Assembly (NCBI RefSeq): GCF_055900595.2
Contig: NZ_CM148325.1
Length of the DNA: 64,000 nt
Strand: one strand, 5' to 3'
Shown here: positions 2,108 to 19,497 of the stretch, piece after piece
Numbering within the stretch: the first letter of the stretch is position 1
How the letters are laid out: each line of letters starts with the position of its first letter
Translations under genes and position numbers: made by a program
Notes under the pieces: model-generated
Told to the model about the DNA's origin: nothing
Seen by the model: the letters and a program-made list of their open reading frames with translations, nothing else
The model's database searches: none

Positions 2108-2464
2108 TCACTTTCAAAAGTTCCTGAAATCCCCAACAAATCCACAATTAAATATTCTGCCCATGCGGGGAAGGATGAGAAGCTTCGACTAAGGTTCGAC
2201 TCGAGCGCCAGCGAGAGAGCGTTGCCGCAGGCAACGACCCGTAGGGCGAAGCGCGCAGCGCTGAGTAATCCTTCCCCCACCACCATCACTTTCAAAAACC
2301 CCTGTATTCTCCAACGAATCCGTAACTGAATATTCTGCCCATGCGGGGAAGGATGAGAAGCTTCGACTAAGGTTCGACTCGAGCGCCAGCGAGAGAGCAT
2401 TGCCGCAGGCAACGACCCGTAGGGCGAAGCGCGCAGCGCTGAGTAATCCTTCCCCACCACCATC
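2108..2464 (+). repeat. Two tandem ~178 bp repeats distal to the tRNA-Tyr genes, each ending in a tRNA 3'-end-like CCTTCCCC(C)ACCACCATCA segment (rtT/tpr region)
   Basis: Near-identical units at about 2108..2285 and 2286..2464, each repeating the last ~19 nt of the tRNA. The short tpr-like reading frame (ATGAGAAGCTTCGAC TAA) is stopped after 5 codons in both units. Confidence 0.8.
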
Positions 2465-18285: not shown

Positions 18286-18691
18286 CAGTTATATCTCCTC
18301 CGATGACAGAAATCGGGGGAGATAATATAAATTCCTGCTTATTGTATTTCTTCATACTACCTGAACAGGTCGTTAATCAGAATTGCGAGCCTGTACCACA
18401 ACCTGCACGAAACCACTGCAACAGCTGTTGAAAAGCCGGAATGTACTCTTTATTGCAAACATTTCAGGGATGAAGTGAAGATGAATTGAGACGTAATATC
18501 CACACCAAGCCGGCGTTATCCGGTGAGGCGCAATGTTGCGGGGGCTTTATCCCTGGTGGCATTGGTTGCTGGAAAGAGAAAACCCCCCGCACGTTGAGAG
18601 GTAAAACCTGACAACAGAACGGGGGCTAATCTTGAACCATCAACAATTCAAGAATAGCTGCAAAATGTTGTCATTACAACAAGGCGGCTAT

Positions 18692-18799
18692 ATGACGCTC
18701 GCGCAGTTTGCCATGATTTTCTGGCACGACCTGGCGGCACCGATCCTGGCGGGGATTATTACCGCAGTGATTGTCAGCTGGTGGCGTAACCGGAAGTAA
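18692..18799 (+). CDS. ldr: Ldr-family small toxic membrane peptide (type I toxin), copy 1
   Basis: 35 aa MTLAQFAMIFWHDLAAPILAGIITAVIVSWWRNRK; single hydrophobic helix with a basic C-terminus. Confidence 0.85.
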   Translation: MTLAQFAMIFWHDLAAPILAGIITAVIVSWWRNRK

Positions 18800-18849
18800 G
18801 GTGAAAACGGGCGTCAGGCTGCCGTGATGGCAATATGCGCCCGAAACCA

Positions 18850-18880
18850 GCCGCAGGGGTAACAGCCTGCGGCCTTTTTT
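18850..18880 (+). terminator. Intrinsic terminator after ldr copy 1
   Basis: GCCGCAGG-GGTAACA-CCTGCGGC hairpin followed by TTTTTT. Confidence 0.7.
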
Positions 18881-19226
18881 GTCTTTATCTCTTCTGCAAG
18901 TAAATATTGGCAACCCGAGCTGGAAGCATCATCCAGAGCACTCATGAAACGACTGTAACAACTGTTGAAAAACCGGAATGCACTCTTCATTGCAAACATT
19001 TCAGGGATGAAGTGAAGATGAATTGAGACGTAGTATCCACACCAAGCCGGAGTTATCCGGTGAGGCGCAATGTTGCGGGGGCTCTATCCCTGGTGGCATT
19101 GGTTGCTGGAAAGAGAAAACCCCCGCACGTTGAGAGGTACAACCTGACAACAGAACGGGGGCTAATCTTGAAACCAGACACTTCAAGAATAGCCGCAAAA
19201 TGTTGTCATTACAACAAGGCGGCTAT

Positions 19227-19334
19227 ATGACGCTCGCGCAGTTTGCCATGACTTTCTGGCACGACCTGGCAGCACCGATCCTGGCGGGAATTATTACCGC
19301 AGCGATTGTCAGCTGGTGGCGTAACCGGAAGTAA
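19227..19334 (+). CDS. ldr: Ldr-family small toxic membrane peptide (type I toxin), copy 2
   Basis: 35 aa MTLAQFAMTFWHDLAAPILAGIITAAIVSWWRNRK; two substitutions (I9T, V26A) relative to copy 1. Confidence 0.85.
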   Translation: MTLAQFAMTFWHDLAAPILAGIITAAIVSWWRNRK

Positions 19335-19384
19335 GGTGAAAACGGGCGTCAGGCTGCCGTGATGGCAATATGCGCCCGAAACCG

Positions 19385-19415
19385 GCCGCAGGGGTAACAG
19401 CCTGCGGCCTTTTTT
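19385..19415 (+). terminator. Intrinsic terminator after ldr copy 2
   Basis: Same GCCGCAGG...CCTGCGGC hairpin plus T-run as after copy 1. Confidence 0.7.
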
Positions 19416-19497
19416 GTATCCGGCCCCATGAAAAAAGCCTTAACGCAGAATGGACTGACCCATAACGCTAAGGCTTTTGTTTTCAAACAAAAAAAGA

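Follow-up and report, generated by a model that had tools for sequence, protein, structure and literature searches.

Closed tpr reading frames in ordinary RtT RNA repeats distal to tyrT

Operon anatomy, membership in the RtT family, conservation of RNA structure, non-conservation of the open reading frame and allele frequencies, all of which are observed directly, show that the two tandem repeats distal to tyrT in the stretch of DNA analyzed here (the window: 64,000 nucleotides of contig NZ_CM148325.1, NCBI RefSeq assembly GCF_055900595.2) are ordinary copies of an already known element. The tpr reading frame is closed in both copies, and a closed frame is the usual state of this family, so that the finding made in the window is itself an ordinary one. 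The explanation that we consider best, with a probability of roughly 90%, is that each repeat is the known RtT RNA, that the tpr frame is incidental to this RNA, that CAA and TAA at codon 6 of the frame are equivalent for the RNA, and that the units of the array evolve in concert.

According to the statements in PMC4986893 and PMC7542023 that cite Bosl & Kersten 1991, RtT is an RNA that is released from tRNA operon transcripts, its exact function being unknown, and it has been linked to the response to amino-acid limitation. The tpr product of K-12, in turn, appears as a 'protamine-like protein' in a passage of PMC11623569 that cites Altman et al. 1981. We found that tpr is still annotated as a protein in K-12, and that the searchable literature on Tpr translation in vivo yields only the 1981 citation and database labels. 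That paper (Cell 26:299) is said to report a protamine-like product.

The tyrT operon and its distal repeats

The window contains all parts of an E. coli-type tyrT operon, namely the promoter, tandem tRNA-Tyr(GUA) genes, 178-bp distal repeats and the purU-narI setting. A candidate promoter on the plus strand (1826-1853), in which TTTACA and TATGAT are separated by a 16-nt spacer, was detected by a consensus scan with 10 of 12 matches; the discriminator 3' of TATGAT is G+C-rich, and homology with K-12 together with the place of the element upstream of the first tRNA-Tyr suggests that it is the tyrT promoter. The two tRNA-Tyr genes that follow on the same strand (1904-1988 and 2023-2107; anticodon GTA; ARAGORN, and Rfam tRNA with 53.4 bits for each copy) are identical to each other and separated by a gap of 34 bp (1989-2022). 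A tandem array then extends over 2089-2466, with a period of 178 bp, 2.1 copies, 93% matches and a score of 665 in TRF.

The boundaries of the repeat units follow from TRF and the comparison of spacers and cores, and for unit 1 also from the sequence itself. Unit 1 (2108-2285, plus strand, 178 bp) begins at the base immediately after the CCA of the second tRNA-Tyr and consists of a variable spacer (about 46 nt) and, after it, a conserved RtT core whose last 19 nt are a copy of the 3' end of tRNA-Tyr. Unit 2 (2286-2462, plus strand) is 177 bp long, its C-run being shorter by one C. The earlier note had described each repeat as ending with such a copy and had placed the repeats in the rtT/tpr region distal to tyrT. 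The copies are present as described: the 19 nt AATCCTTCCCCCACCACCA at 2267-2285, at the end of unit 1, are identical to the tRNA 3' end at 2089-2107, and the copy in unit 2 (2445-2462) retains 18 of the 19 nt, with one C missing. The identification, too, was right, as judged by the Rfam RtT matches and the anatomy of the operon.

The region is flanked by purU upstream and, downstream, by the convergent narI, which has its own terminator; this purU-narI synteny is common to the window, K-12, strain E200086 and further strains. A scan of the window found no intrinsic terminator on the plus strand, either between the promoter and the RtT units or after the array. Such an arrangement fits the Rho-dependent termination that has reportedly been described for the K-12 tyrT operon. 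On the minus strand, both tRNA-Tyr genes and both RtT units are spanned by an antisense ORF of 208 aa that starts with GTG (1840-2466). Its K-12 counterpart is 'ychS' (b1228, a putative uncharacterised protein), likewise antisense to the rtT repeats, and the ORF is almost certainly a spurious product of G+C-rich repeats.

The spacers of the two window units differ at 11 of 49 positions and the cores at 2 of 129 (a G/A substitution and one C). These differences bear on the question of whether a short-read assembly could have collapsed or averaged a longer array, as might be feared for tandem repeats of 178 bp, which are prone to collapse and come in 1-4 copies among complete genomes. We consider such an artefact extremely unlikely because neither the 11 spacer differences nor the G/A and one-C differences in the core resemble a collapsed consensus, and because two-unit arrays with a tRNA pitch of 119 bp are common in finished genomes.

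RtT family membership and RNA structure

Both units match the RtT family (Rfam RF00391) on the plus strand, at 2154-2285 with 132.8 bits (E 4.6e-29) and at 2332-2462 with 120 bits (E 6.6e-26), against a gathering score of 45 bits, and both matches span model positions 1-130 of 130. These E-values put the repeat well outside what chance would produce. Beyond the score and the full length of the matches, the units share with the family a co-oriented site in a tRNA operon, the copy of the tRNA 3' end and the conserved structure. The last of these features was assessed by mapping the Rfam structure onto an alignment of 109 distinct RtT cores. Across these sequences, standard pairs occupy 98.9% of the cells, as opposed to 40-55% when the partners are slid; helix 1 is paired in 99.7% of the cells, and compensatory changes occur at 6 pairs of the Rfam structure. 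Many invariant columns of the alignment were fixed by the search pattern, so that their conservation is partly by construction, while the codon-6 position was left free. Single-sequence folding produced a weak z-score (-1.81) and a partly different fold, and the comparative counts are used here instead. In the mapped structure, the copy of the tRNA 3' end that closes each unit (…UCCUUCCCCCACCACCA) pairs with the 5' GGGGAAGG of the RtT unit.

Two further helices with strong covariation were observed in the alignment that are absent from the RF00391 consensus or are present there in a different register. The first is formed by 2200-2202/2215-2217 together with 2205-2206/2211-2212, with UA in 77, CG in 20 and GC in 10 sequences for the pairs of columns 47-64. 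The second (2250-2254/2258-2262, in the region of columns 99-112) shows compensatory changes in 5 of its 5 pairs and is paired in 88% of the cells, compared with 10-39% when the partners are slid; in about 30 sequences, tandem G-A/A-G takes the place of two of its pairs. The alignment thus suggests that the Rfam consensus structure of RtT could be refined.

The first base of codon 6 of the tpr frame falls in column 37 and stands opposite a G in column 94, the combinations being U-G in 75 and C-G in 32 sequences. The exact pairing of this site is tentative, as RNAalifold favors another fold for the 5' third of the RNA, namely a local hairpin with the codon-6 base in the loop. With this base either opposite G or in a loop, C and U would be equivalent for the RNA, and this equivalence would explain the free CAA/TAA polymorphism described below. 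Furthermore, a Shine-Dalgarno-like GGAAGG that abuts the ATG of the frame, as well as the U of this ATG, lies inside helix 1, and it follows that initiation of translation would be expected to compete with the RtT fold.

The tpr reading frame in the window and in K-12

The tpr-like frame reads ATG AGA AGC TTC GAC TAA in both units (2175-2192 and 2353-2370, plus strand), that is, five codons and a stop, as seen in the sequence and its translation. The earlier note was correct in reporting a stop at codon 6 in both copies: the two TAA codons are located at 2190-2192 and 2368-2370. In unit 1 the rest of the K-12 frame continues to a TGA at 2262-2264, and neither window unit contains an uninterrupted 29-codon ORF from nt 68 of the unit. 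Given TAA at codon 6 in both copies, no Tpr-like product is possible from either. At codon 23 (2243-2245 and 2421-2423), both units carry GTA in place of the usual GAA, which results in a U-U mismatch in RtT helix 3. The pair concerned is the least conserved one of this helix and is unpaired in 11 of the 109 aligned sequences.

Tyrosine suppressor tRNAs classically map to tyrT, and for this reason one may ask whether readthrough or suppression of the TAA, for example by a tyrT-derived ochre suppressor, still allows the peptide to be made. Both tRNA-Tyr anticodons in the window are wild-type GTA and there is no sign of recoding in the context of the stop; suppression was accordingly rejected, its probability being close to nil.

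In MG1655, the annotated tpr gene (b1229) corresponds to distal unit 1, has CAA at codon 6 and encodes 29 aa; the sense codon and the 29-aa peptide that the earlier note ascribed to K-12 are thus correct for the annotated gene. This unit is the only open one among four RtT-like units in K-12. Distal unit 2 has the same TAA at codon 6 and carries GGTTCGG, distal unit 3 has CAA at codon 6 and a stop at codon 10, and the unit between tyrT and tyrV combines a GTG start with TAA at codon 6. The earlier note had held that the same TAA in reference sequences would refute it. The K-12 array does carry this TAA, and the sense codon given for K-12 is nonetheless right for unit 1. What finds no support is the assumption that the stop notably sets the window apart from the reference, given that TAA is found in K-12's own repeats and in 94 of the 140 Enterobacterales units discussed below.

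The RNA annotated in K-12, rttR (b4425, 171 nt), starts 7 nt past the CCA of tyrV and ends with the CCA of unit 1. The window shares with it the order purU, tyrT/tyrV, RtT, narI and the 178-bp unit that includes the tRNA 3' end, and both the match over the entire Rfam model and the secondary structure are the same; the window core differs from the core of K-12 unit 1 at 2 positions. In contrast, the window has two distal units where K-12 has three, and a tRNA-tRNA gap of 34 bp without an RtT unit where K-12 has one of 209 bp that contains such a unit. The window further differs in having TAA at codon 6 of both units and GTA for GAA at codon 23, and in the lack of one C in the last CCA-proximal C-run. 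With respect to the b1229 frame, the start is the same (nt 68 of the unit), and the differences lie at codons 6 and 23 and, in unit 2, also at codon 16.

O157:H7 Sakai and CX21 carry a TAA haplotype identical to that of the window, GCTTCGACTAAGGTTCGACTCGAGCGCCAGC, and, like the window, have no unit with an open tpr frame. Unlike in the window, codon 23 is GAA and the spacers are different, and the last unit in both strains is of the CAA type that stops at codon 10.

Codon 6 across Enterobacterales and within E. coli

A search with a degenerate pattern, in which the codon-6 region was unconstrained, recovered 92 loci from species-representative genomes of Enterobacterales, a non-exhaustive set that is devoid of representatives of E. 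coli, S. enterica subsp. enterica and K. pneumoniae, even though K-12 fits the pattern. Among the 140 RtT units in this set (about 87 genomes), codon 6 is TAA in 94, CAA in 38, GAA in 6, CGA in 1 and TGA in 1, and in 55 of 87 genomes all units are stopped at this codon. The 29-aa ORF is present in only 4 of the 140 units. In addition, species differ by a 1-nt indel at alignment column 55 that puts the downstream part into another frame, the alternative frame reading GSIRAPARKRCRRQRPEGR. Such a combination of stops, few 29-aa ORFs and frame-shifting indels is not compatible with protein-coding evolution, and tpr does not appear as a conserved protein-coding frame among the relatives. Moreover, no Pfam or NCBIfam model was found for Tpr, and the PGAP annotation at this locus in the compared genomes is 'RtT sRNA' only. 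Taken together, these comparisons indicate that the tpr frame is probably a by-product of the RNA sequence rather than a conserved gene, with the K-12 ORF as the exception.

Within E. coli, haplotypes were counted in 5,426 complete genomes with exact 31-mers, for which a single internal mismatch leaves megablast without a seed, so that a match shows the haplotype to be present. One or more AGC-TAA units occur in 1,828 of these genomes, or about a third, while AGC-CAA was found in 3,995, AAC-CAA in 15 and AAC-TAA in none. The exact haplotype of the window through codon 12 occurs in 430 of the 5,426 genomes, mostly O157, and the open haplotype of K-12 unit 1 (codons 3-12) in at most 2,914. The census counts genomes for each haplotype and not the overlap between haplotypes, so the number of genomes that lack an open frame is only bounded by these figures. 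The tyrT locus is highly variable in complete E. coli genomes, with 2-3 tRNA-Tyr genes, 1-4 RtT units and a tRNA-tRNA spacer of either 34 bp or 209 bp, the longer of which contains an extra RtT unit.

Strains without any open tpr frame do exist. The single RtT unit of strain 504239 carries TAA. In 90-1, O157:H7 Sakai and CX21, one CAA unit that stops at codon 10 is accompanied by TAA units, one each in 90-1 and Sakai and three in CX21, and all four RtT units of O157:H7 2571 are closed. These loci were picked from TAA-bearing matches rather than at random, and hence prove the existence of closed strains but not their frequency. Conversely, E200086 and AST85, which have AAC at codon 3, have an open tpr frame in all units.

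With these data in hand, the possibility can be weighed that tpr is a real small-protein gene that was pseudogenised in both copies, in which case the strain lost a protamine-like peptide. The open 29-codon frame of K-12 unit 1, annotated as tpr, is what one would expect under such a loss, as are the open frames in every unit of E200086 and AST85, the closest relatives of the window, and the excess of AGC-CAA over AGC-TAA within E. coli. We nevertheless regard pseudogenisation as very unlikely. The frame is closed in 67% of the Enterobacterales units and shifted by indels, every unit is closed in Sakai, CX21, 90-1 and 504239 as are three of the four K-12 units, Tpr has no protein family model, and helix 1 encloses the start codon, with the Shine-Dalgarno-like sequence abutting the ATG.

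The same strains bear on reports of essentiality. The update of the Keio collection lists tpr among 11 ORFs of 'uncertain' essentiality, both tpr isolates having kept a copy of the target (PMC2824493). Since natural strains without an open frame exist, the Tpr peptide cannot be essential, and the apparent duplications are probably an artefact of the 178-bp repeats rather than a sign of essentiality.

Relatedness of the repeat units and of the strain

Several observations point to concerted evolution as a real feature of the RtT locus. Across species, the median distance between units is 0.023 within a genome and 0.215 between genomes; the nearest neighbor belongs to the same genome for 64 of 83 units; and two units have the same codon-6 state in 90% of pairs from one genome, compared with 51% of pairs from different genomes. 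Among the sampled E. coli units, GTA at codon 23 is found only in both window units and in the E200086/AST85 lineage. The cores of E. coli strains differ at 0-8 positions, and the window pair, with 2 differences, is no more alike than that, so that the case for conversion in the window leans chiefly on GTA and TAA being common to the two units.

A tentative alternative, which we consider possible but clearly less probable, is that the TAA in both copies reflects independent retention of an ancestral TAA without recent gene conversion. Most units of the family have TAA, the 2 core differences fall inside the inter-strain range, and the spacers differ at 11 of 49 positions, hence no whole unit was recently duplicated. 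Against retention, the lineage-specific GTA, found in the two units of the window and the two of E200086, calls for at least one homogenisation, and across species the units group by genome. Retention does not contradict the main explanation, from which it departs only in the route, and the window genome alone cannot separate conversion limited to the core from retention under constraint. The suggestion in the earlier note that the copies had been homogenised therefore holds to the extent that units cluster by genome and share GTA, while the choice of gene conversion over retention cannot be made from the window alone. Under the preferred explanation, both window copies would have come to carry TAA through concerted evolution, by unequal crossing-over or gene conversion, with the RNA core under constraint; units that evolve in concert would be expected to share the TAA.

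The window is 99.8% identical to the rare E. coli lineage that includes E200086, AST85 and others over ycgV-dha, but only 97.5-97.8% identical to it over tyrT-nar. In view of the former value, an assignment of the window to Shigella or some other species was rejected. When positions 1-44289 of the window are compared with E200086, there are 0-2 differences/kb at 29-40 kb and 20-49 differences/kb at 1-3, 7-9, 14-16, 19-21 and 24-25 kb, with 27-49/kb at 1-3 kb. This patchy divergence suggests recombination tracts and places the tyrT-rtT locus in a divergent, apparently recombinant patch.

Other RNA elements in the window include two ldr/rdl type I toxin-antitoxin modules (18406-19417), which form an internal repeat and are about 95% identical, with matches to Rfam rdlD at 18577-18643 and 19114-19179 on the minus strand, and a C0299 sRNA match at 60209-60287, also on the minus strand.

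Proposed processing of the distal transcript and implications

With respect to the working of the locus, we propose that each unit is a structured non-coding RNA in which the 5' GGGGAAGG pairs with the 3' UCCUUCCCC, a copy of the 3' strand of tRNA-Tyr, leaving an ACCACCA tail. The trailer TCACTTTCAAAA is present after the tRNA and after the first RtT unit alike, and from this common trailer we infer that both are cut by the nucleases responsible for tRNA 3' maturation. Their cuts in the transcript would yield tRNAs together with RtT RNAs about 171 nt long. By analogy with K-12 rttR, the processed RtT RNAs are predicted to span 2115-2285 (171 nt) and 2293-2462. Like this processing route, the precise route to homogeneity of the units and any function that RtT may have in trans are matters of interpretation.

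The earlier note had offered two readings, one in which the region works as RNA and the peptide can be dispensed with, and another in which the copies have been homogenised. The former gains strong support from the Rfam scores, the structure and the non-conservation of the ORF; the two readings are not mutually exclusive, and both are broadly right.

Judged from sequence comparison, the non-conservation of the ORF leaves room for strain-specific translation. One could imagine that the C/U alternative at codon 6 is a natural on/off switch of a dual-function RNA, the open units serving also as mRNA for the peptide, although we hold such a switch to be very improbable. If it were real, a structured tRNA-trailer RNA would have given rise to a young and lineage-restricted basic peptide, encoded by CAA units without a later stop, such as K-12 unit 1 and those of E200086, and the window would represent an 'RNA-only' allele and a useful control.

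Under the explanation preferred here, in which the repeats are the known RtT RNA and the frame is incidental, the closed frame carries little weight for biology. It carries some for annotation, as it supports treating the locus as RtT RNA, in the way that PGAP already does.
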